This document shows, piece by piece, positions 13,960-63,347 of a stretch of DNA of 64,000 nucleotides. Source of the stretch: Isurus oxyrinchus (taxonomy: Eukaryota); contig JANJGN010000031.1 of the NCBI GenBank assembly GCA_026770705.1, positions 2,418,001 through 2,482,000 of the forward strand. Direction: 5' to 3'. Both the position numbers and the translations under genes were made by a program. The notes beneath the pieces were generated by a model. That model was not told where the DNA came from, searched no databases, and saw only the letters and a list, made by a program, of their open reading frames with translations. Within the stretch, counting starts at the first letter, position 1, and the number at the start of each line of letters is the position of its first letter.

Positions 13960-14204
13960 ATTATATACAGACATAAAAGCAAAGAACTGCGGATGCTGGA
14001 AATCCAAAACAAAAACAGAAACAGAAATACCTGGAGAAACTCAGCAGGTCTGGCAGCATCGGCGGAGAAGAGCACAGTTGACGTTTCGAGTCCTCATGAG
14101 GTTCTGTTGAAGGGTCATGATGACTCGAAACGTCAACTCTGCTCTTCTCCAACAATGCTGCCAGACCTGCTGAGTTTTTCCAGGTATTTCTGTTTCTGTT
14201 TCTG
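13960..14204. mobile_element. Palindromic Penelope-derived mini-element (inverted terminal-repeat pair)
   Basis: Inverted arms 14008-14099 and 14115-14206 (~90% identical, 15-nt loop); 12-bp TSD TTCTCTCCTTCC at 13948-13959 and 14205-14216. Confidence 0.85.
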
Positions 14205-14273
14205 TTCTCTCCTTCCGTTTCTCCCCTTGCTCATTCACAACCTGTACCGGGTATTCACATGCTCTGGTCGGGA

Positions 14274-15439: not shown

Positions 15440-16545
15440 GGATTCAACTGATTTGAGGATGGTTAAGGCTGTACCATTTTTTAAAAAGGGAGAAAGGGAT
15501 AGGCTGAGTAATTACAGACCAGTCAGGCTAACCTTAGGTGGTGGGCATATTATTGGAAAACATTCTGTGCGACAGTATAAATGGTCATGTAGAAAGACAC
15601 AGATTAATGAAGGACCGACAGCGTGGATTTGTGAAGGGAAAGTTGTGTCTGACTAATATGATTGTATTTTTGGAGGAGGTAACATGGAAGATCCATGAAG
15701 GTTGTGTATTTGATCGAGTCTTTATTGAATATCAGCAAGGCTTTTGACAATTCTTGCATGGCAGATTGGTCAGGAAAGAAAAACCCATGGGATCCAAGGG
15801 AAAGTGGATCCAAAATTGGCTCAGTGGCAGGAAGTGAAGGCTAATAGTCGATGGGTGTTTTTGTGACTGAAAGGTTGTTTTCAGTGGAGTTCTGCAGGGC
15901 TCAGTACTGGATCCCCATATATAATATGTATGTATGTATATTTTTCAATGAGTTATACTTAAATGTAGAGAACATGATTAAAAAGTTTGCGGGCGATACA
16001 AAAATTAGATGTGTGTGGTTGATAGTGAGGAAGAAAACTGCTGCCAGACCTGCTGAGTTTTTCCAGGTATTTCTGTTTCTGTTTTTGTTTTGGATTTCCA
16101 GCATCCGCAGTTTTTTGTTTTTATCTCTGTGGAAAATATCAAAAGACTGGCCTAAAGGGCAGAAAAGTACAAAGTAGCATTTAATATAGCGAAGTTGAGG
16201 TAATGCATTTAGGGAGGGCAAACAAGGCAAGGGAATAGACAATGAATGATGGTTGATACTGGGAATTGTAGAGGAACATTGTAAGAGTGCATATCCACAG
16301 GTCCCTGAAGGTAGCAGGGCAGCTAGTTGAGGTAGTTAAGGAAGGCATAACGGTATACTTTCCTCTATTCACCAAGGCATGGAAGATAAGAGCAGGGAGG
16401 TTATGCTGGAACTGTATAAAACACTGGGCCACAACTAGAGTATTGTGTGTAGTTTTCGTCCCCTCATTACAGGAAGGGTCTGGTCACACTCGAGAGGGGA
16501 TAGAGAAGATTTACAAGAATGTTGCCAGGCCTGGAGAATTTGAAA
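15440..16545 (+). mobile_element. CR1 LINE RT fragment, degenerate; contains a short PLE-tail insertion at ~16040-16125
   Basis: FKKGERDRLSNYRPV; QRGFVKGKLCLTN; KFAGDTK. Confidence 0.85.
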
Positions 16546-25219: not shown

Positions 25220-25910
25220 AACACAAGAAGTAGCAGGAATAGACCATATGGCCCATTGGGCTAGTTCCACTATTCAATACGATCTGGGCTGATCTTGGGC
25301 TTCAACTACATTTTCCTGTCCATTCTCCATATCCCTCAATTCCCTGAGAGACCAAAAATCTGTCTATCCCAGCCTTAAATGGATTCTATAGTGAAGTATT
25401 CACAACCCTCGGGGTAGGGAATTCCAAAGATTCTTTGAGTGAAGTAATTACTCCTCATCTCAGTCCTAAATGACCGGCCCCTTATCCTGAGACTTTGGCC
25501 CCAAACCCATGTTTTAGATTCCCTGACCACCTCTCAGCATCCACCCTACTGAGCCCCTTCAGAATTTTGTAGGTTTCAATGAGATCACCTCTCATTCTTA
25601 TAAACTCAAGAGAACATAAGCCCAATGTACTCAGCCTCGAGCATAGAACAACTCCCTCCTCCCAGGGAGCAATTTAGTGAAACTTTGCTGTACCATCTCC
25701 AATGTAAGTATAGCCTTTCTTAAACGTGGAGACCAAACCTGTACACAATACTCCAGGTGCGGTCTCGCCAGAACCCTGTACAACTGTAGCGAGATTTCTT
25801 TATTCTTGTTCTCCCAGTTCCCTTGCAATAGAGACCAACATTCAAACAAAAAATTCATACATAGGCTAAGCAATCAGGTTAAAAACATGTAAACTTGTGA
25901 CAATAATGTA
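25220..25910 (-). repeat. Inverted copy of 27170-27910 (non-CR1 head of ~75 bp plus CR1 3' end)
   Basis: 25833-25910 is the reverse complement of 27171-27248 (5 differences in 78 nt by eye). Both CR1 parts encode RKAIL..EMVQQSFTKLLPG. Confidence 0.8.
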
Positions 25911-26911: not shown

Positions 26912-27239
26912 AGGTGGTACAGCAAAGGTTCACTAGATTGGTTCCTGCGACATGAAGCTGAGTAAATTGGGTCCATATTCCAGGGAGTTTAGAAGAAGAG
27001 ATGATCTAGTTGAAACACACAAGATTCTGCAGACCACTTGACAGGGTAGATACCGAGAGATTATTTCCCTTGGCTGGAGAATCTAGAACACAAGGGCTCA
27101 GTGTCAGGATAAGGGGCCAATCATTTAGGATGGAGATGAGGAGAAATTACTTCACTCAAAGGGTTGTGAATATGTTATTGTCACAAGTTTACATATTTTT
27201 AACCTGATTACTTAGCCTATGTATGAATTTTTTGTATGA

Positions 27240-27910
27240 ATGTTGGTCTTTATTGCAAGGAGATTAGAGTACCATAATAAAGAAGTCTTGCTACAGTTGT
27301 ACAGGGTTGTGGTGAAACTGCAGCTGGAGTATTGTGTACAGTTTTGGTCTCAACATTTAAGAAAGGCTATACTTGCAGTGGAGATGGTGCAGCAAAGCTT
27401 CACTAAATTGCTCCCAGGCATGACGGGGGTTGTTCTATGATGAGAAGCTGAGTAAACTGAGTTTATATTCTCTTGAGTTTATAAGAATGAGAGGTGATCT
27501 CATTGAAACCTACAAAATTCTGAAGGGGTTCAATAGGGTGGACGCTGAGAGATTGTTTCCTCTGATCAGGGAATCTAAAGCATGGGGTGGTGGGGGGGGG
27601 GGGGGGGGGGGGGGGGTGGGGCACAGTCTCAGGATAAGGGGCCAATCATTTAGGACTGAGATGAGGAGAAATTACTTCACTCAAAGGATTGTGAATCTTT
27701 GGAATTCCCTACCCCAGAGGGCTGTGGATGCTCCATCATCGAATGCATTTAAGGCTGGGATGGACAGATTCCCAATCCCTTGGAATCGAGGGATATGGGG
27801 AGTGGGTGGGGAAGTAGTATTGAGGCTGAAGATCAGCCATGATGGTATTAAAGAGTGGAGCAGGCTTGATGGACCATATAATCTACTCCTGCTTCTATTT
27901 GTTATGTTCT
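27240..27910 (+). mobile_element. CR1 LINE 3' end with expanded G-run
   Basis: [26 protein letters not shown]; TTATGTTCT tail. Confidence 0.85.
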
Positions 27911-29764: not shown

Positions 29765-32700
29765 GTAAATTACTTTATTAAACGCCTCGCTTAGTTAGGT
29801 TTGGGATTAAAAAAAAACGAAAGCGCCTCTCCCGAGCTGTTTCACTTCTCCCCTCCATTTTCTGAAGATTATTTTGTAAAATAAGTTCAACAGAATAAAG
29901 TCTGTACTTAATGTCTCGATAAGATTCATTCACTTGGTGTTAATTTGTCCGCATCCCGTTCCAACTCATTTGTATCCATTAGACTTCGAGTTTCACTCGC
30001 TCCGTGTGTGCTCAATGGGCGCGGTTCGCCAACTCTCAAACTATGGCTCCATCACCCAATAGTGTGAAAGGGTTGCTGAAGAAGTTGTTAAAATATTCAG
30101 ATCCGTCAGTGGATCAACCCCAAGGACATTTTTATCACCGGCCCTGCAGGTTCCATCCTGGGATCACGGGGTTTAAACTAAGATAGTTTTCATTTGGCAG
30201 ATTGTGGTACTGAGTGTATCTGAGCACTTGGTCCCTCCCAGTTTAGAGTGCGGTCACCAAGTATGCCAGACCTGCTGAGTTTTTCCAGGTTATTCTGTTT
30301 TGTTTTACCAAGTATACCCACTCTGTTTGGGTCGATCATTCTAAAGATGATAACAGCTAGTTGTGTGAGGTATAAGCCACCTCATAGCATTTCCCTGTGT
30401 AGGTTGTGCTCACTCACAAATGAAAACCTTACAAATTAAACTTTTAACCTGATGGGGAGATTAAAAAATATTGTTGAACTTCAAACTGCTGCGAAGGCCC
30501 AATTGCCTTGAATTACACTGGGGCCATGTGCCAATGGTGGGTGCCCGGTTAAGACTCTCACCATTAACTATCATCTGAGCTGAGTGGAGTGCCCGAGGTG
30601 GTGGCTGCGGCTAAGGGCTGTGCAAGATTTCAAAGCAGTCAGTGACCAAAGTCACCAAGAAGCGGAGAAAATCTGGCAAGCAGAGCATGTACAGAGGGCT
30701 AACCCAAGTCCACCCTTCCACCAGGATCTTGTACAAGGTTATGATTGTTATAAATTCCTTCATTGTCGACATTTTTGAGCGCATCAACTCTGAGGCCTCG
30801 CACCTGATTCACTACAAGTGTCATGCCATCGCGGCCAGGGAGATCCAGAGCGCCGTCTGCCTCATGCTGCCAGGGAAACTGACCAAACACGCCGTCTCCA
30901 AAGGCACAAAAGCGGTCACCAGATACACCAACTCCGTTTAGGTTGATCCAGTGTAAAGATTATTTCCCATCATTAGTCCAATCAGTTGATCCACTGAATT
31001 GAGGACTTTAGCAAACAGCAGGTGTCAGCTTCTTGTTACATTTTACAAATGGTTCATTTCTGATTAACCCCTTGCTGCACACAAATCAAAATACATTGTA
31101 TTAGTAGGATGGGCTTAGAAGGTCAGTTTGGCCAAGTTTGTTTGGTTACAAAGGTAAGAAACTGGAGCTGTAGTTTGTCAGTGAAATGTGTTTTATGGAA
31201 CCTTCATGTTGTCATTATGGCTTGGGACAGCTGGGGTAGCAGCAGTGTGGGAGTTGCCTCCCGTTTGGTAATATTCTATTCCTGATAATTATGAATGGAG
31301 ACCATTAGACAGGATTCACCAGATCATTTGATGTTGTGAACTGTTCACTGAATGTGTTGAATGTAGATTTATATCCACAGACTCCTTAAAAAGAGAGGCC
31401 TGCATTTATATAGCATCTTTTACAACTTTAGGTCATCCCAAAGCATTTTACAGATTTATTTAAAATCTGGGAAATGCAACAACCAATTTGTACGCAGTGA
31501 GGTCTGCCAGTTAAGGTAAAATGGAGTGAAGGGGGTCATGTGACCTCTGCCTGACATGAGGTCTGGGTGGCTTGGTCACTATAAGGAGGTTGATTTATTG
31601 GGAAGAAAACACAAGATGTTCACTCTTGTAGACAATAGCAGGAGCAGTTGTGCTGACTGTGGGTAGACTGGTAGTTTCCTAGTCTTGCAGGGAGCTGTTA
31701 GGAATGTCACATTTAAACTTTAAGCTGTCTGTTTAATTCCAAGATAGAATGGAGGTGGGGGAATCTAGAATATAGCTAATTAGCATTTCTACCTGGATAC
31801 AAGCCCCATGTGATTCATGTTGCCATGGAGATAGGTTTTGGGAAGGGAAAAGTCAATAAGGAAGCCAGGTTTTGGGAAGGGAAAAGTCAATAAGGAAGCC
31901 AGGTTTTGGGAAAGGAAAAGCCAATAAGGAAGCCAGGTTTTGGGAAGGGAAAAGCCAATAAGGAAGCCAGGTTTTGGGAAGGGAAAAGCCAATAAGGAAG
32001 CCAGGTTTTGGGAAGGGAAAAGCCAATAAGGAAGCCAGGTTTTGGGAAGGGAAAAGCCAATAAGGAAGCTAGGTTTTGGGAAGGGAAAAGCCAATAAGGA
32101 AGCCAGGTTTTGGGAAGGGAAAAGCCAATAAGGAAGCCAGGTTTTGGGAAGGGAAAAGCCAATAAGGAAGCCAGGTTTTGGGAAGGGAAAAGCCAATAAG
32201 GAAGCCAGGTTTTGGGAAGGGAAAAGCCAATAAGGAAGCCAGGTTTTGGGAAGGGAAAAGCCAATAAGGAAGCCAGGTTTTGGGAAGGGAAAAGCCAATA
32301 AGGAAGCCAGGTTTTGGGAAGGGAAAAGCCAATAAGGAAGCCAGGTTTTGGGAAGGGAAAAGCCAATAAGGAAGCCAGGTTTTGGGAAGGGAAAAGCCAA
32401 TAAGGAAGCCAGGTTTTGGGAAGGGAAAAGCCAATAAGGAAGCCATTGTAATATTGGGTGATAGAGTTTCTAAGATATCCCTGAAACTCAGACACAGGTC
32501 CATCCATCTGCAGCAATCTGAGAAAAGGAGGCAGAGGCAGCCGTCCTGTACCTGAAGCAGAGAAAATTCACCATTCGAATGTGGGTGAGAGCTCATGCTC
32601 AGATTCAAGAGACCAAGTTCCTGACAATTTAAAGGAGGCTGGGAGATTTGCCTAGCTTAGGCTAGAGAGAAGCAATCTTCAGTGTAACCCTTGTATTAAA

Positions 32701-53700: not shown

Positions 53701-56700
53701 GAATTAACTATTTCAAAGTGTTGATGTTTAAAGCTGCACCATGTTTCTGATAAGAAAAATTAACATCACAATTTTTACAAAGAGAGCATGGAAATAGGAG
53801 CTCATTTAGCCCCTCTGGACTGCTCCACAATTCACCTTTGTCTTGGCTGATCTGTATCTTGACTCCATTGGTTCCAAATCTCATTAAAACCCTCTTCCAA
53901 CAAAAAATCTCTGCCTTGTTTTTGACATTTTAAACTACCCCCAGTCCCAGCAACTTTGGGTGGAAAGAGTTCCAGATTTCTATTTCCCTTTTGTAAAGAA
54001 ATGTTTCCAGGCATTTTTGAATGGTAGAAATGGAGCTGCATTTCTATTAATGACTGTCCACTGAGCCCTGCTGAGACATGTACATCTCCTAATCAAATGC
54101 CACGTAACACGTTCTAGCTCAGTTTTTGCACACATGTAAAGTGTAGACATTTGGGCTGAGGTATGGTTTAGGGTGAATAATGTAATTGTTTTTCCACTGA
54201 ATCTGTGCCCTGACCAGCTACTCTGGCCACTTGTGTTTAAACTAACTGCATGATTCACCTTCCCAGGGTATCTACAAAAGATTCGACGCCGACAAATCGG
54301 GAACAATTAACAGCCAGGAGCTGCCTGGGGCATTCGAAGCTGCAGGTGAGATGTATGACCGGCTGGTCAGCAGCTCCACGATGGGGCATTGGGGAGAAGG
54401 TGGTGCCAAGGGCACATTTTGCAGCATTTTTCAACACTTCCCAATGTAACATGTCTACCTTCAATTGCAAATGATCCTTTATCCAGGTAGTTTATTATGT
54501 CTCTGCACCCTAATCCTTTAAAAGCCTTTCAAGTGGAACCTTAAGTGATTTCTGTAAATTGAAACATTATGAAACAGGCAGCCCACCTCTACTAATTGAA
54601 ATATCTCAGCAATATTTGAGATTCATCATAACTGCTTTGTGACCATTCTGAATGCCTGCTATCCTCTGCCCTTAAGATAAACATAGGTATTTATAATAAC
54701 CATTTGATAAATTAGTGGATTCTATTTAAAAACTTCCCCAAGGCCATCTGGCTGTTTTAGTACCAAACTCTCAACGGCTTCTTCAACAACACCCCCCCCA
54801 ACCCCTCAGACCTGTAACTTCCACCTAGAGGGCAGCAGATGCTGACCATCCTGACTAGGAAACATATCGCTGTTCCTTCTTGCTGGGTCAAAATCTTGGA
54901 ATTTCCTCAGCATAGCAACACAATGGGCATACTGTCATCACCAGCATGTCAAGGGAGCCTAGGGATGAGCAATAAATGCTTGTCTTGCTATTGAATCCCA
55001 CATCCTGAGAATAGAATTTTTAAAATAAAAAGCTGAACCGCCCCCCACCCCCTGCAGGATGTTGTACCTTGGGTTGCCGACTAGTTAATGATCTGTGTTG
55101 TACTGTTCAGAGAAGAGTTGACGGCCGAGGTTCTTGCAAACATGACTGCTATTGGAAAGGGTGTTGGTGTGTCTTCAGGTGAATAGAAACTAGCAGCAGT
55201 AGGCCATTCGGCCCCTCAAGCCGAAACGGAAAAAATGCCACTCATATTTGTCTGCACACTGTCAATTTCCAAACAAAGAACTTGTGCTTGGGTAAGGTTT
55301 GGAAGGGCAGTGTACCCTAGCATGGATTCTCAGAGGAGTGCAGTCAACAGTGAAGACTAACCTGACAAATGTACCTATGTGGTTTAGAAGTGTCTTTATA
55401 TATCATGACTGCAGGTTGGAACTCTGAAGTGGGTTTGACAGTTAACCTTATTCTCTTTGTCTCCTCTCAGGATATCCTCTGAATGATCAACTTTACCGAT
55501 TGCTGTATCGCCGATATGCCAATGAATCTGGTGACATGGACTTTGACAACTACATTGCCTGCTTAGTCCGACTGGACGCAATGCTTAGTAAGTGGGGTTC
55601 TGTCACCTATTGAATATTTGGTAATTATATGGGCGCTGGACAATCCGGACTGAAATAAGTCTTGTGAAATTGTCTTTGGATTCTGTAGGGCAGCAATATT
55701 GAAGCTATTTGTGGGTTATTGCTGTGTTCGAAACATGTATTTTAGTCTGTTTTGTTTCAGGTACTGTGCACGCTAGTCTCAGTGCAAAATAGATTGACAT
55801 GGATAATTCCAAAGCTGGGATATTATAGTCACCAGGGAAGTCTGACCAGACTGGTGCTCTTTTTTTTTTTCTCTAATAAGGGAAGACAGGGTGACCTGAA
55901 AGAGGTCTTTAAAAGTTATTGAGCAAGTTTCTATTTGTGCAGGTGTCCAAAGCACCCCTTGCACTCTCGTAAATATGAGACACTCACCAATATTCCCAAT
56001 GGGGAATTCTATAGAAATATCTTTACCCCAGAGAATGGTAAGGATGTGGAACTTGCTACCGTGGAACAGGCTGAGGTGAATAGAATAGATGCATTTAAGG
56101 AGAAGCTAGATACGTACATGAGAGAAAAAAGAATAGAAGGATTTGTTGATGGAAACAGAAAAATGCTGGAGACACTCAGCAGGTTTGGAAAGAAAGAGTT
56201 TTAACAGGCGGAATCTTCTGTTGGTGGCGAGGGTCCCCCCCGCCAGCTGGAGAGCCAGTGGGAGACCTGCGCTCACTGACTCTTCATTGGAAGGCCTGTT
56301 GGATCTTATGCTAATCGGGCAGATCTGGGGACATCACTGGGCCTTCCTCTCAGAATCCTGTCCCCAGAGGTGGAAGTGCTGCTCACCCAGAACAGTTGGA
56401 AAGTCAGAAACTGGCAGCTTGTGATCAATAGCGCCACAGAGGTGGCTGTGGTTGCTGCTGGAACAGCATCCCCCTGCCCCCCTGCTGGAGTCCCAGGAGA
56501 AAGGTAAGTGATGTGGGGTTGGTGCAGGTGCTCTTGCAGCTAGCTCCCTGCCTGATGCCGTTGCCCTCAATTAGGCATTGAGTGCCTTTGATCGAGGGAA
56601 CCCCCAGTCCAGGTGGCAGGTGTTGCACACACTCTTGCCAGTTGTCCAGACTGCACGTTGGCAGCGCTGCTTAGAGCTGGGTTAACCCCAGCAGCAGCTG

Positions 56701-59700
56701 GAAGAGGCCATTTAAGTGGTCACTAACTGGCCACTTAAGAGTCTCGGTCAACCTTCTTGCCCTACCGCCATGCTAGGTGGTTGAATTGTGACACAGTAAA
56801 GGATGACCTTACCTCCACTGTGTTAACTCTGAACTTAATTCTGGTGGTACACCACCATCCCACCTAATTAAATGCCCTTCCTGCCTCCAAGCTCAACACC
56901 TCCAGGAACAGAAGATTCTGCCCACCGCCTCGGGTCTGAGTTCTGATGAAAGGTCATCAACCTGGAGCGCTAACTCTGTTTCTCTCTCTGCAGATGCTGT
57001 CTGACCTCCTGAGCATTTCTAGCATTTCATGTTTTTGTTACAGATTTCCAGCATCGGCAGTATTTTGCTTTGGTGTTTGTGATGCTTTGATGGGGTTAAT
57101 TGGAGGAATCGAAGGAACCATGTGGAATATAAACCAGTTGGCCCGAATAGCCAGTTTTCCTCTTGTAAATCGGACAGAGCCCTATCATATATAGGATTCC
57201 TTGGCTGGTCAATAGGTGCCAGGGTTCAGAGGGTCTAGTAGGACTCAGGTTGAAGGTTGGGGACCCAGTTCAAAGGGAGGGAAAGCTGTGTGACGGACCC
57301 TGCCTGTTTGTTGAGTTTTTTTTAGGAGTTGACTGAGATCCAAAGCATGTGATTTCCCCAAATGGGAATGAGTTGTGTGTTTTTGTTTTTGTTAGCAGAG
57401 CCTTTGTTTCACATCTGCTCTGGGTTTTATCCAACCTACTGGAAGTATGTGGTTAAAAAAAGACATTTTTCTGCAGTGAGCTGTACTCATAATTGCAACC
57501 TTGAGTTGACTTTTTTTCAAACTTTTTTTTTGTCTAAATTTGTTTAGAGAGGAAGGATGGAACTTCTAAAATCTGCAAACAGCAGCAGTCCAAGTTGCTG
57601 TGTTCAGTCGCTTTTTAAAAATAATTGGGTTATTAATCCTGGAACACAGGAGGGGGCCATTCGGTTCATAGTATCTGTGCTTCTTTGAAAAAGCTTTCCT
57701 ATTAGTCCCAGTCCCTCTGCCCGCTCTTTGCAAAATTTGCCATTTTGCGTATTTATCCAATTTTCATATGAAAGCTATAATTGAATCTGCTTCCGTTTCA
57801 AACAGTGCATTCCATAATGATTAATTTAAAGATTTTTTAAACTAAACTACACTTCTTCGTCTATTTCACTCCCCTGTTCCCGTTTCCCTCCCCAGTCTGG
57901 TCATTTAAAAGTTTTTAAACCACTGTACCTTTTCAGCTTTAGAAGCTTCTGAACAGCACTAATTAACCCCTGTATTTAAAATAAAAATATAAGCTTGAGC
58001 TCATTCTAAACTTTAAGATAAAAGCAAAATACTGCAGATGCTGGAAGTCTGAAACAAAAACAGAAAATGCTGGAAGAAAACTCAGGTCTCACAGCGTCTG
58101 TGGAGAGAGAAACAAGATAATGTTTCGAGTCAGTATGACTCAGAGCTGAAGAAGAGTTGTAAGGACTTGAAACGTTAACTCTTTTTCTCTCCACAGATAC
58201 TGTTAGGCCGGCTGAGTTTTGCCAGCATTTTCTGTTTTTGTTTCATTTAAAACTTTGTCTGTCTGACCTAATTCACACCAAAAGTCCAGTTGTCATATAT
58301 CACCCTGTCCTCACTGACAGACAAAGACTCCGACATCAACTCTTAGGCAGTGCCTTGATTTTTAAAATTCGCTCCTTGTTTTCAAATTCCTCCGTGATCT
58401 CGCTCCTTTAGAGTCTCTGTAACCTCCAATGGCCCAGCAACCTCGGGATCTCTGTGCTCTTCCAATTCTGGCCTCTTGTGCAGCCCTGGTTTGCTTTGCT
58501 CCATTATTGGTGGCCTTGCATTCAGTAGTCTGGGCCCTAAGCTCTGGAACTCCCTCACTCAACCTCTCCACCCCTCTTTCTTCCTTCTTTAAGCTCTTTA
58601 TAATCTATCTCTTTGGTCATCTCCTTACGTGGCTTGGTGTCAGGTTTGTTTGATGATTGCTCCTGTGAAGTACCTTGAGACATCTTATTCCATTAAAGAT
58701 GCTGCTTAAATGTGAGTCACTGTTGGGGAGAGCTGGTTGGGCTTCACTTCTTCTGTTTCACTTGCAGGATCATTCAAAACTTTGGATAAGGACAACAATG
58801 GCTCCATCAAAGTTAACATAGTGGAGGTAAGGTCATCCTTTACTGTGTTACAATTCAACCACCTAGCACCTGTTGGAGCTGATCTTCTTATTCCACCAAC
58901 TAATGGGAAGATGTGGAGGAACGAATCTGCAGTGAAAATTACAGAAAGATCCAAAAATTAGAGTAGTCACAATGGGGGACTTATCCTAATATAGACTGGG
59001 AAATTAATAGGACAGAAGAGAAGAGAGTAGGGAGTTCCTAGAGCGTGTTCAGGAGAATTTTCAACATCCAGTGTGTTTCCAGTTCGATGAGAAAGGAGGC
59101 TTTGCTGGATCTGGTTCTGGGGAACAAGGTGGGTCAAAGTGTGAAGGGGAACATTTCCAGGAGAGTAATCATAAGGTAATATGGAAAAGGACAAGGAGCA
59201 ATTCAGGGTAAAAATAATGAATTGGGTTGAGAACTGATCTGACCCAGGATAAATTAGAGTCAAAGATTGACAGGCAAAACTATTAAAGGTGCTATGGGCT
59301 GCCTTTTAAAGAGGAGAGAGCTCGAGTACAGGGGGCAAGGTAGGACAAACTAATCCAAAGCTCCCTGGATGATGAAAGAGAATGCAAGATGAAACCAGAG
59401 AAAAGTGCAAAATAAAGCTTTTGGATGGATATTACAATTGAAACAGACTGAAATATAAAAGACTCTAGAGGGGGAGATGAAACTTCTGATGATAGACTAA
59501 CTGGCCCGTGGCTGCAAGGACTTCCTCACACCCTTCCTTGTATAAGGGTGTCACATTTACCATTCTCCAATCGTCTGGCCCTCCCCCATATCTAGGGAAG
59601 ATTGAAAGAAGCGGCAAACCTTTCTGCTATTTCCAACCCCACAACCTGGGATGTAGCTATCTGGGCCGGGTAACTTATAAGCATAGCCAGCTTTTCCAGT

Positions 59701-61638
59701 ACTACCTCTTTCCAATTTTCACACTATCTATTGCCTCCTCTATCGCTCCTTCTACTGATACTTCAATTCCTTCACTTAGTAAACATGGATATAAAGAATT
59801 CAGTAAATATTCTAGCCTTGCCCTGCTCCTCTAAGTATATCAGCCTCTTTGTCTCTAATGGGACCCACTCCACTCACTTTAGTATCCACTTACTATTTAC
59901 ATGCTAGCAGAGAACTTTTGGGTTCCATTTTATGTTGACTGCCATTCTATTCTCCTACTCTTTGTTATGCTCATTTTCCTTTGACCTGGCTTTCATTTGA
60001 AGAGCTCACTTGACATGCATCATGCACCCTCTTTTTGTTTCATCTTAATCTCTGCCTCCCTGATCATTCAAGAAACTCTGGTTTTGGTTTCCCTACCTTC
60101 TGTCCTTGTTGGAACGTACCTAATCTGTATCTGAAGCATCTCTTCCTTTAAAGAACACCTATTGTTCTGTTACAGATTTTCCTGTCTGTTTTTGGTTCTA
60201 TTTTACCCCGACTAGACTCCTTCACTCCTATTGTTCTCCTGGGAGAAGAGAAGTTTGAAATGAGATTTGCTAGAGGTATTCAAAAGCATGAGGGTTCTGG
60301 ACTGAGCAGATAGGGAGAAACAGATCTCGTTGGCAGAAAGAACGAAAAGCACAGATTTAAGGTGATTTGACAAAATGAGGAAAATCTTTTTCACGCAATG
60401 TGTGGTTAGGATCTGGAATTCACTGCATATGTGTGGTGAAGGCAGATTCGACCATGGGTTCGAAAAAAAGTTGGTTAATTATCTGATGAGAAAATATTTG
60501 CAGGGCTACTGAATAACACCGAGTGGAACTAAATGAGTTACTTGTTCAGAGAATTGGCATAGACATCACAGGCCGAATAGCCACCTTCTGTGCTGTAACC
60601 ATTCTCTGATTCTATTCTATGATTCTGCTATGAGACCTTGGCTTAGCCCATGCAAATGCTATTTTGGCTGGTGTGTTTAGTCACTGGATTCAAAGAGAAT
60701 GTTGCCCAGTCAAATGTAGAGTTTCTATGGATCGTCCTTGACTCAATGTCATTCATTGGAGACTCAGTTTGGACTGTCACAGCCATCATTGGTGTAGGTG
60801 CTTGATCTACAACCAATAGAATTTGACTGGTCTATTCACTGTCCTATCACAGCTCTAAACTTTGATCCTCCTGCATTAAAGGCTGCTAATCTTTGGCTTT
60901 ATCAAACTGTATAGGAGGGTAAACAGGGAACCTCTCTATAGGGGAGTGTGTTCATTCCACATTGTCAAACACAAAATTCTTGGTAACTCTGTTTGAAGGC
61001 TCAAACATGGTGATGGGTTTGCTGCCAGTCAGACACCTGACCAAGATAAACTAGGGTTTATCTACTAGGGTGTGACAGATGGAAGTTGGTGTCAAATTGT
61101 CCATAACATTGAGATTGTTCCTTCAGGGATAGGAGTTTGTTTTTATATTTTTAATTTACTTTTCTGAATGTGGGTAAGGCTGGGATTTATTTTTCACCCC
61201 CTAGTTCACCCTAGATAGAACTGAGTGGCTGGTTAGGCACTTTGGAGGACAGATGAGAGTCTGTGGGGGTGGGACTGGAGTCTCATGGGGAAATCGGATT
61301 TCCTTCCCAAAGATAATGAGTGAACCAGTTAGTTCTTTAACAATCCAAAAGCTTTGGTGACTTCTGCCAGGTTTTGAATTTTATTTCCTGGTTTTTATTT
61401 TAAACTGAGTTGAGATTCTCTAGTTACCACGGTGGGATTCTCTGCATTTTTTTTTTGTTCTGGCCTCTTGATTGCTAATCTGGTAAATATAACCGACACT
61501 ATTCAGCATATATGCATATATGGTCTTCCACCATGATTAATGGAAAATGAGCATTGAGGATGTTACAAATAGACACTGGTGGCTAATGACTTTTCCCATT
61601 CTCTGTTCCAGTGGCTGCAGCTCACCATGTATTCCTAA
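29676..61638 (+). CDS. CAPNS1: Calpain small (regulatory) subunit 1, 224 aa; join(29676-29764,36289-36307,37617-37709,41799-41856,49952-50016,51909-51977,54267-54345,55471-55587,58768-58826,61612-61638)
   Basis: Spliced translation [224 protein letters not shown]. Gly-rich domain V plus penta-EF-hand domain; all introns GT-AG with consistent phases. Confidence 0.97.
30589..30941 (+). pseudogene. Histone H2B-like pseudogene in CAPNS1 intron 2
   Basis: [58 protein letters not shown]. Start appears as GTG, with an N-terminal frameshift and small deletions; no histone stem-loop after the stop. Confidence 0.85.
31833..32444 (+). repeat. Minisatellite, 18 x 34 bp (AGGTTTTGGGAAGGGAAAAGCCAATAAGGAAGCC)
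   Basis: 612 bp = 18 units; only 4 substitutions seen. Confidence 0.95.
33015..33190. mobile_element. Penelope-derived palindromic terminal repeat, degenerate
   Basis: Similar to 13960-14204 and 58020-58245. Confidence 0.65.
35240..35910 (-). mobile_element. CR1 LINE 3' fragment (intron 2)
   Basis: [33 protein letters not shown]; CTTATGGT tail on the minus strand. Confidence 0.9.
36289..36307 (+). CDS. CAPNS1: CAPNS1 exon 3, 19-nt microexon (S)QMATGP
   Basis: Long polypyrimidine tract and TTCAG acceptor; CCG|GTAAGT donor; bridges phase 2 of exon 2 to phase 0 of exon 4. Confidence 0.8.
37617..37709 (+). CDS. CAPNS1: CAPNS1 exon 4
   Basis: [31 protein letters not shown]; TATAG acceptor, GTAAGC donor. 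Confidence 0.95.
41799..41856 (+). CDS. CAPNS1: CAPNS1 exon 5
   Basis: [19 protein letters not shown]; TGCAG acceptor, GTAAGT donor. Confidence 0.95.
42170..44105 (+). mobile_element. Relatively young 5'-truncated CR1 LINE (RT domain) nested in an older antisense CR1 fragment
   Basis: [11 protein letters not shown]; [13 protein letters not shown]; [10 protein letters not shown]; KFADDTK; 298-aa open stretch at 43055-43951; TTCTTTG tail repeats. Confidence 0.95.
44985..45342 (-). mobile_element. tRNA-derived SINE; a second, older copy lies at ~45620-46000
   Basis: Reverse complement of the SINE at 28866-29130 (GGGATTTGAACCC B-box). Confidence 0.7.
46068..47340 (+). mobile_element. tRNA-derived SINE split by an LTR-like insertion
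   Basis: Head TAGTGG..GGTTCAAATCC at 46076-46142; body resumes at ~47160 (GAAGGAAATCTGCCATCCTTAC). Confidence 0.7.
46268..47156. mobile_element. Probable solo LTR (~889 bp)
   Basis: TGTTATGA...TCATGACA termini; interrupts a SINE; TSD degenerate. Confidence 0.6.
48755..49140 (-). mobile_element. CR1 LINE 3' fragment
   Basis: [28 protein letters not shown]. Confidence 0.85.
49952..50016 (+). CDS. CAPNS1: CAPNS1 exon 6
   Basis: (H)[21 protein letters not shown]; CACAG acceptor, GTATCCTC donor. Confidence 0.96.
50017..51908 (+). other. CAPNS1: U12-type (minor spliceosome) GT-AG intron 6
   Basis: 5' site GTATCCTC; branch site TTGCCTTAAC (51887-51896) with branch A 13 nt from the intron end; no polypyrimidine tract. 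Confidence 0.9.
50380..51400 (+). mobile_element. L2 LINE fragments within intron 6
   Basis: CADNIQLY (YADD-like), [18 protein letters not shown]; tail GCTATGTAAATGCAAGTT. Confidence 0.7.
51909..51977 (+). CDS. CAPNS1: CAPNS1 exon 7
   Basis: [23 protein letters not shown]; TTTAG acceptor, GTATGT donor. Confidence 0.96.
52810..53690 (-). mobile_element. CR1 LINE 3' fragment with a nested PLE tail (~53348-53445)
   Basis: [28 protein letters not shown]. Confidence 0.8.
54267..54345 (+). CDS. CAPNS1: CAPNS1 exon 8
   Basis: [26 protein letters not shown] (EF-hand loop [12 protein letters not shown]); ACTAAC branch site, CCCAG acceptor, GTGAGA donor. Confidence 0.97.
55471..55587 (+). CDS. CAPNS1: CAPNS1 exon 9
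   Basis: (G)[38 protein letters not shown]; CTCAG acceptor, GTAAGT donor. Confidence 0.97.
56206..56923. mobile_element. Harbinger-type MITE (718 bp) inside a PLE palindrome; carries an inverted CAPNS1 fragment
   Basis: TIRs AGGCGGAATCTTCTGTT and AACAGAAGATTCTGCCC (15/17); TSD AAC/ACC. Confidence 0.8.
56771..56828 (-). repeat. Inverted copy of the exon 10/intron 10 junction (58811-58868)
   Basis: 56/58 identical to the reverse complement; differences at 56790 and 56820. Confidence 0.95.
58020..58245. mobile_element. Penelope-derived palindromic terminal repeat
   Basis: Inverted arms around CTGAAGA..GAAACGTTAACTC. Confidence 0.75.
58260..58705 (+). mobile_element. L2 LINE 3' end next to the exon 10 acceptor
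   Basis: DFKI..LVFKFL; GGGCCCTAAGCTCTGGAACTCCCT; L2-type 3' end. Confidence 0.7.
58768..58826 (+). CDS. CAPNS1: CAPNS1 exon 10 (EF-hand 5 loop)
   Basis: (R)[19 protein letters not shown]; TGCAG acceptor, GTAAGG donor. Confidence 0.96.
58940..60630. mobile_element. Rearranged CR1 remnant: sense endonuclease part, antisense middle (~59490-60210), sense 3' end
   Basis: VVTMGD-like motif at ~58963; antisense CR1 sequence; [13 protein letters not shown] and TTCTATGA tail at 60385-60625. Confidence 0.6.
61612..61638 (+). CDS. CAPNS1: CAPNS1 exon 11, coding part (WLQLTMYS*)
   Basis: TTCCAG acceptor; the conserved CAPNS1 C-terminus; TAA at 61636-61638. Confidence 0.97.
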   Translation, partial: WLQLTMYS

Positions 61639-63347
61639 AGCACTCGTCTCGGGATCAGCCCTTCAAAGAGAATGGAAGACCTCATTTGCTACTCATCTAT
61701 CAGAGAGCTGGAGAAACGGTCCTTCGCTTGGCTGGGTGGGGGGGGGTGGGGGTGAAATTATATTTTTCTGCATGTCGGCTTTTTATAGTTACGGAGATAT
61801 CTGCGAATGTCAGCTTGTTGGGAAGGTTGTGGCTAATCTTGACCATTCTGAAATTCCGCACTGCTTCCTTCCTGATGGCTGCGATTGCCAAAATTTTTAA
61901 AACAACCATGTTTGAGGGGAAAGGTCCTTCTGTGAGAGCTTTGAAAATGGGAGGTGAAGGAACAGGGAATGCTGGAAACACAGATCAGGTCCCCTCTGTT
62001 CCCTCCACAGACGCTGGTAGACCTGCTGTTTTTTTTTTTTTCCTCCTCCTTGTGAATTTCCTGTTTCTGATTCCAGCGACTGCAGTAGTTTATCTCTTGT
62101 TTGAATCTGCTAACCTCAACGTTTCTGTGCGCATGCCTAAAAGGCAGTGCCTTTTTGAGGAAATCAACCTTTTTAAACAATGTAAAGGTCACTTGTCATA
62201 TGTAAAGTTGTAGTTTTACCCTGTCCCCTCTCACATTTGAACATTTGTTGGTCTCTCTTTGTGGGGAAGCCAATTTTGAAGCATTGCTGCGTAACTCTTT
62301 TAACCTGGTGGGGGATGTTGTGTGCCAAGCAGCATTAATGAAGGGGAAGAGCATAATTGTTTGAGACCAGGTCTCTCCCTATAGTAATTGGAGCTTTGGA
62401 AAGGTCAAGTTTATTTTTGCAAATCCTGTGCTCTGGGGAATGGTAAAGGTGCTTTAACTGCTGTCATCCGTCTGAACTGATCTATGGAATGCTGTCATCT
62501 GTTTGAATGCTATTGGATCTTGCTGGTTTATTTCTAATGTATAAACAAATTTATGATCCCATGGCACCAAGAGCCAGTATCGCTTCCTATGATTTCTTTG
62601 CAGCCTTTTTCCATTACCTAAAACATGAGACCCGGCAAAGGTCGGGTGGTGTTGCAAAAGGTGCAATGTTCCCAGAATCAGGAATTTGAAAATGCATTTC
62701 CTTCACCCTGTGAGGTTTTGAAGGATATGCTCTAAGTCAGACTGAGCTTATACCCTTCTCATTTCCAGAGACCCATCCAACATGGAGCTGATCATAGAGC
62801 CATAATGGCTCACTGTGGAGCAGTCTAGTCAGTCTGGTCAGTCTTTCTCTTTACACAGCTGGAATCCAACTGTTCAGTACCATGAGATGTCCATGCCAAC
62901 GGTTTTCTGTTTAGTTTTCACTCAATCTGCGATCTGTATGAAAACCCATACTCCATCCCTCTTTTAATTTCATCTGAAGGGAATAAGATAATCCCATTGT
63001 CTTGCAATGGAAGTTGTTGAGCATATTTAGCTAGTTGACCCTTTTAGCCACTAAAATGGGCCATGCTTTTTCTTACCTGAGGCTTCTGGATCATTGGTGA
63101 ATTAGTCCTTCTGTTACCTGTTCTTGGAGCATTGCCAAAGTGTGTGGTTCACTGGAATGTCTGCTGGAGTCTGTCAAAGATGAATCAGAACTGCTGATTG
63201 TTGAACTGGGAACATCAAGTCCCAATTGCTGTTTTGCCAAAATCGCACTTGAGGAAAGTTATCAGATCTTTTAATGCTGAGGTCTTATTGGACATTGAGT
63301 GATTGTACCTGCCAATGTGTAACAGACAACAGTGAAACTAGTGGGGT

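Follow-up and report, generated by a model that had tools for sequence, protein, structure and literature searches.

Two kinds of described system come closest to the locus reported here: short inverted sequences left when DNA repair or replication switches template, and RNA stems that cover a 5' splice site. Germline events of the MMB-TI type include classes termed “complex” and “in-place inversion,” with the program MMBSearch considering templates within 100 bp (Osia et al. 2021, PMC8421209), and related inversions and insertions are described under the four-point template-switch model and as templated sequence insertions. Stems over a donor are represented by Drosophila CG33298 and by the human PCCRs. 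Within the 64,000-nt window analyzed here (the whole stretch of DNA, to whose first letter positions refer), an inverted copy of an exon end and its donor, hereafter the arm, lies in the preceding intron of the same gene. Our analysis points to the arm being, in all probability, a microhomology-mediated template-switch scar from DNA repair or replication which is likely tolerated, not selected.

The host gene, the inverted copy and its pairing potential

By homology, the host gene is shark calpain small subunit 1b. Its upstream exon matches calpain small-subunit chains in the PDB (E 8e-13), and a homologue search returned 12 proteins with 93-98% identity over the query, 10 of which are named calpain small subunit 1b or 1-like and come from sharks and rays. 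Homology to the penta-EF domain and a conserved C-terminus are both present, and the canonical C-terminal end is found in all 12 relatives. Ten coding exons were mapped between 29676 and 61638 by tblastn with two of the homologues; the exon whose donor is copied is the ninth and penultimate of these, so that the label “exon 10” of the original prediction fails as a count of coding exons and would hold given one non-coding first exon. The exons needed for what follows are these:

55471-55587, plus strand: upstream coding exon of calpain small subunit 1b (exon 9 of the original prediction)
58768-58826, plus strand: penultimate exon, 59 nt, bounded by AG and GT and confirmed by spliced joints; encodes the EF5 loop, and its skipping shifts the frame
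61612-61638, plus strand: coding part of the last exon, from the tblastn exon map

The penultimate exon aligns to residues 147-165 of the 173-residue small-subunit chain 4phj_A, which is the EF5 loop. Loss of EF5 is reported to weaken heterodimers, with the heterodimer signal reduced to 58-64% by EF5 truncations and to 11% by full removal, and truncated CAPNS1 of that kind is described as not stably expressible (PMC12205653). Elsewhere in the gene, an intron holds a near-perfect tandem array with a period of about 34/68 nt (31829-32445).

Comparison of the window with itself reproduced the predicted copy exactly, both in its coordinates and in its 56 identical positions out of 58:

56771-56828, minus strand: the arm, an inverted copy of the exon end and donor region, reaching 56832 with one added mismatch
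58811-58868, plus strand: template and target, comprising the final 16 nt of the penultimate exon and the initial 42 nt of the last intron

The two differences, G56790 and G56820, each face T on the plus strand as had been stated, which makes G·U pairing possible. Gapped self-BLAST lengthens the match to 62 nt (56771-56832 / 58807-58868, 95.2% identity, E 8e-21). The target carries GAG|GTAAGG, with the donor at 58826/58827, and lies 1,982 nt from the arm. A genome-wide search with 56741-56860 gave two matches, the arm and the target, although the absence of a further match is no proof of rarity. At the position corresponding to 56820, where the arm reads Thr, Ile is found in 12/12 relatives, and the arm is therefore the derived copy at that site.

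Chimeric reads can give inverted local copies, and an assembly artefact was weighed on that account. The arm and its flanks are crossed without gaps by contigs of four sequencing runs (X1 and X10, which are DNA, along with X16 and X17) from two organisms, which rules this origin out and leaves it with next to no probability; the existence of the upstream copy, on which the original prediction depended, is thereby supported by sequencing. Of the two organisms, A is the one represented by the window (X1 possibly being the source sample) and B is a relative, with about 0.47 of sampled words in common.

The pairing potential of the arm also proved real at the level of prediction. Stable complementarity lies over the 5' splice site: the duplex of arm and target is predicted at -109.5 kcal/mol and extends over the whole U1 site, and in the minimum-energy fold of 56700-58950, 61 bases of the arm pair with the target. 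Within the loop lies another predicted duplex:

56977-58114, no strand assigned: nested pair of inverted short repeats (56977-57071 / 58021-58114), predicted duplex -126.6 kcal/mol

This nested duplex is compatible with that of arm and target, both being formed in the minimum-energy fold, and it shortens the effective loop. The probability that both differences are compatible with G·U pairing by chance is 6-14%.

The host transposon, the junctions, and the age and frequency of such copies

The arm sits in an old transposon copy, and its junctions are accompanied by further rearrangement:

56205-56925, no strand assigned: non-autonomous DNA-transposon (MITE-like) copy of ~720 bp hosting the arm, old
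56746-56769, minus strand: 24 bp of MITE sequence inverted in place, separated from the downstream arm by 1 bp
56771-56772, plus strand: left junction, a 2-nt TG that the inverted donor has in common with the MITE (ATG)
56826-56832, plus strand: right junction, where the inverted donor shows 6-of-7 microhomeology to the MITE
56842-56847, no strand assigned: site where a net ~25 bp is missing compared with sister MITEs, also in organism B (no gaps)

The MITE has terminal inverted repeats of 21 nt (56207-56227 and 56902-56922), and the longer matching segments of its family are 68-77% identical. A genome search with the MITE listed 69 matches (40 of 879 candidates scored), and none of the other 67 among these covers the arm. 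Of 29 sister copies fetched, the 12 spanning both ends were aligned, and the arm insert is found in 0/12. Judged by these alignments, the arm is a later patch inside one MITE copy and not a component of the family; the description of the arm as transposon-embedded therefore stands as to position and does not extend to the transposon family as its bearer. The same evidence bears on Pack-type capture, in which a gene fragment would be carried and spread by the transposon family: the arm does sit between intact terminal inverted repeats, but its two matches genome-wide, its absence from the 67 other matches listed and the 12 aligned copies, and a donor just 2 kb from the host MITE copy make such capture highly improbable.

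The inverted form of the 24-bp segment fits better in 11 of the 12 sisters (best 20/24 vs. 11/24), with a tie in the remaining one. About 12 bp of the MITE were replaced by the arm, the lost letters being reconstructed from sister copies. The junction microhomology (2 nt on the left, 6/7 on the right) is short enough for chance, and the letters before insertion come from sisters of ~70-77% identity. The ancestral form lacks the insert, whose sole template lies 2 kb off, and of the two copies the arm is the derived one; the 24-bp inversion 1 bp off adds a further switch to the replacement. Taken together, the arm, the 24-bp in-place inversion, the roughly 12 lost bases and the short microhomologies most likely make up a compound template-switch scar. 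The original prediction, while exact on the copy itself, did not include the adjoining inversion and small deletions. The ~25-bp net deletion near 56842-56847 may belong to the same event as the arm or to a separate one.

In a plausible sequence of events, a 3' end that had broken or stalled within the MITE would first switch locally and produce the 24-bp inversion. It would then use the 2-nt microhomology to prime 2 kb downstream on the same strand, copy about 58 nt backwards, and rejoin the MITE at the 6-of-7 microhomeology. Two observations were made beside these features. At 56767, within the micro-inversion, run X1 (organism A) has A in place of G, which is allelic variation next to the arm. 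The MITE also contains a strong cryptic donor-like motif, AAG|GTAAGT, at 56502-56511 that is present in sister copies too; among the joints listed, none uses it.

Comparison of the two organisms dates the insertion and gives a limited measure of its conservation. Since the arm is present in both A and B, the insertion is older than their split. Run X1 of organism A shows four differences, none of them inside the arm. Between A and B, 15 sites listed in the MITE differ, or about 2% (one of these, 56673, also differs in run X1), and the arm of B is identical in X10, X16, and X17, with no substitution over 56674-56860. The probability of 62 nt of arm without change is 0.24, and that of a gap-free stretch this long is 0.16, neither of which is significant; with one relative at about 2%, the arm is conserved no better than its MITE flanks. 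On the target side, contigs of organism B differ from the arm at 4/62 (X10) and 3/58 (X17) positions, where A has 3 and 2. One target site in B has thus changed while the arm stayed the same, and this site could still pair as G·U. Covariation in a relative, which had been proposed as a check on the predicted duplex, is not seen, as the extra target difference in B is left uncompensated by the unchanged arm.

How often such copies arise was estimated from the genome itself. In an initial scan of 464 kb, the arm and target were the only such pair within 20 kb. A k-mer scan was then applied to 1.664 Mb in seven hand-picked blocks, where a third copy was lacking from the sample for 39 of 1,156 candidate pairs and the inverted pairs within 10 kb merged into 15 events, the arm-target pair included. 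Genome-wide search of 8 of the 14 other events left three at a single locus, with five dropped as repeats and the remaining six uncounted. These three copies measure 135-325 nt with spacers of 0.25-1.2 kb, and their presence does not imply an origin as templated insertions:

Genome G000, contig C31:5048417-5050240, no strand assigned: single-locus inverted copy, 325 nt
Genome G000, contig C25:20042156-20043211, no strand assigned: single-locus inverted copy, 182 nt
Genome G000, contig C18:40043306-40043822, no strand assigned: single-locus inverted copy, 135 nt

Three such controls in 1.66 Mb correspond to 1.8 per Mb, or about 9,000 per genome (95% interval 1,850-26,000), so that tens of copies are expected to lie over a donor by chance (about 14-68, with extremes of 3-200, assuming 150-250 thousand donors).

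Other repeats showed local similarity in the course of this survey. The window positions 25821-25906 / 27175-27260 form an 86-nt patch of 95% identity within an inverted repeat pair whose identity elsewhere is about 80%, possibly reflecting gene conversion between the inverted copies. Repeat fragments 2 kb apart (13967-14058 and 14156-14206 / 16039-16130) are 96-98% identical, well above most pairs of their family, and may represent another local templated copy. Two further segments, L100:6553-6687 (C31:12076553) and L188:6976-7070 (C18:40156976), are terminal repeats of multi-copy elements whose ends at the same locus are closer to each other (87-97%, with one 70-nt stretch at 100%) than matches of equal length elsewhere, which possibly reflects homogenisation.

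Splicing of the penultimate exon and the rival readings

Three runs, X15 from organism A and X16 and X17 from organism B, were judged to be spliced RNA from their GT..AG joints, and in all three the dominant contig includes the penultimate exon. One contig of X15 carries the joints 55587>58768 and 58826>61612 at an equal contig depth of 1296.7. Both inclusion joints are present in X16 at depths of 758 and 304.5, and in X17 a contig of depth 938 extends 177 nt beyond exon 9, opening with the target exon and long enough to reach the last exon. The depth of the exon-9 bin equals that of exactly one contig in X16 and X17 (organism B only), and the skip joint is absent among the joints listed (15 of 844). 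Intronic contigs amount to 0.2-1.4% of the spliced depth for both introns; in X17, the contig that leads out of the exon into the last intron stands at depth 11, vs. 2-4 for the other intronic contigs there. Contigs drop rare isoforms, and a 30-nt skip overlap might be missed, so these data establish dominant inclusion and are compatible with minor skipping. The same reading applies to alternative use of the masked donor, for which dominant contigs include the exon in 3/3 runs and rare isoforms are invisible to contigs. Inclusion near 100% that stays unchanged on deletion of the arm had been named as the outcome that would overturn the predicted control of splicing; of this, the contigs show dominance of inclusion in every run, rare isoforms being lost from them. 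Some skipping or editing at a low level, without selection for it, may take place.

Retention of the exon in the main transcript of all three RNA data sets makes a tolerated scar the most likely reading of the arm. Its harmlessness would follow from timing: U1 and exon definition would act on the donor as soon as it emerges from the polymerase, ahead of annealing to a partner 2 kb upstream. Folding apparently reaches no more than about 50 nt behind the polymerase, according to PMC2077896, which cites Eperon 1988. If the donor is recognised co-transcriptionally first in this way, the duplex would form too late or too rarely to matter.

A feature of the last exon has to be set beside this. Skipping of the penultimate exon opens the following frame:

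61614-62213, plus strand: frame opened in the 3' UTR by skipping, 199 codons without a stop

Stops per frame over 61614-62213 number 13, 10, and 0. The chance of an open skip frame is 5e-5 to 2e-4 under Markov models and 2.3% in a genome sample, the latter presumably including retroelement ORFs. The frame holds a hydrophobic F/L-rich stretch and passes through runs of G and of T as well as a repeat fragment. A search against 1.84 billion representatives, which by its nature reveals only species with an open frame, found P0002, a single-member 190-residue protein from another assembly with 34% identity in the same frame (E 2.9e-8); this is probably the homologous UTR of another species. A second candidate relative, P0001 (ankyrin repeats), was rejected as a spurious short match. 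A fused isoform with the skip-frame tail was found in 0/905 and 0/131 candidates in two word-index searches, which is weak evidence. The open frame is unexpected and independent of the arm, and it leaves a slight chance to regulation through the duplex.

The alternative put forward originally was that the arm serves as an exapted cis mask, covering the donor and blocking U1 to give a regulated exon-skipped mRNA. By the frames found here, such an mRNA would escape NMD since its stop is in the last exon and would encode a subunit without EF5 and with a 200-residue tail. In its favor are the predicted duplex of -109.5 kcal/mol over the whole U1 site, with an effective loop shortened by the nested duplex, the arm unchanged between A and B (though not significantly so), the G·U pairing preserved by both old arm differences, the skip frame open over 199 codons with P0002 as one same-frame singleton, and, as a precedent, the masking of a donor from 185 nt away in Drosophila CG33298 (PMC2724269). 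Yet inclusion is dominant in 3/3 RNA-type runs, exon 9 bears no second contig in X16 or X17, the target change in B is uncompensated, the tail-fused isoform is found in neither candidate set (weak evidence) while 12/12 relatives end canonically, and conserved complementary regions are described as depleted at active splice sites (PMC8052449). Masking as a means of regulation is thus quite improbable, and the claim of control over exon 10 inclusion is not supported, given the dominant inclusion, the uncompensated target change and an arm no better conserved than its flanks. In a narrower version, the mask would act in some tissue or when transcription is slow. The isoform so released would be NMD-proof and would carry, in place of the dimerising EF5, a 200-residue tail read from the open 3' UTR frame and including a hydrophobic stretch; we consider this a long shot. 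Were it true, such scars, where they recur, would supply new splicing switches.

The same duplex could instead act as an editing-complementary sequence that recruits ADAR, which would edit adenosines in the last codons of the exon or in the donor before splicing. A near-perfect 58-bp duplex of exon and intron is the type of substrate described for intron-guided editing (PMC5291252), and adenosines are available (18 A in the target, 15 A in the arm). Against this, the arm contigs of X16 (depth 4.4) and X17 (depth 2.1) list no change, with the caveat that these are majority letters at low depth and possibly DNA, and the target-side contig of X17, with 3 differences in 58 nt relative to the arm, matches the DNA of B (4/62); editing is accordingly held to be improbable to much the same degree as masking. 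A different question is what served as template, since a neutral scar could have been copied from nascent pre-mRNA or a displaced R-loop strand instead of ordinary resected DNA. An inverted copy on the plus strand is expected from priming on any sense-strand molecule, the copy spans the unspliced exon-intron junction, and class 2 templated insertions are repair patches in a work with a heading stating that TSIs derive from RNA (PMC5110952). The adjoining in-place inversion points to DNA-level switching, however, and the locus offers nothing to tell RNA from DNA templates, which leaves an RNA or R-loop template unlikely, if less so than the functional readings. The neutral repair scar, mentioned in the original prediction as a fallback, gains support from the scar anatomy, the single locus and the inclusion of the exon.

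Comparison with known systems

The arm, read as a repair scar, offers a clean natural case of a multi-switch event, and it also provides a natural control in which a near-perfect 58-bp donor complement 2 kb upstream occurs alongside dominant inclusion in two related organisms. This cautions against predicting regulation from pairing energy alone. Were the arm found to control splicing or editing, a single repair event would have created a ready-made cis antisense switch on a calpain dimerisation motif. Among the literature matches listed for CAPNS1 splicing, editing-complementary sequences and antisense templated insertions, no title concerns this locus or class.

With donor-masking stems, such as those of Drosophila CG33298 (PMC2724269) and the human PCCRs (PMC8052449), the locus shares a complementary box over a 5' splice site. 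As described in these sources, the boxes of CG33298 are phylogenetically conserved, lie 185 nt apart, act on an alternative donor and are backed by mutational proof, and PCCRs are conserved elements; the arm, in contrast, is 2 kb upstream, recent, and uncompensated, and its exon is in the dominant transcript.

The likeness to repair-derived insertions is closer. As in the two MMB-TI classes named at the outset (PMC8421209), an inverted templated insert replaces a few bases and is accompanied by multiple switches, an in-place inversion, apparent junction microhomology and fixation in the germline, but the event is old, being common to two organisms, and the template of the arm is 2 kb away, so that the 100-bp limit of MMBSearch accommodates the 24-bp inversion and not the 58-bp arm (1,982 nt). 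The locus likewise resembles four-point template-switch mutations (Loytynoja and Goldman 2017, PMC5453318), which produce short inversions and new, unselected inverted repeats or hairpins; that model fits the 24-bp inversion, whereas the 2-kb jump of the arm departs from its local form and would need switching of the FoSTeS/MMBIR type or end joining. Finally, like class 2 templated sequence insertions (TSIP, PMC5110952), the arm has the character of a break that was patched, with neither a target-site duplication nor poly(A) in evidence. The template of class 2 insertions is distant, while that of the arm lies in the same gene, and for this reason the patch is antisense to its own source within one pre-mRNA.
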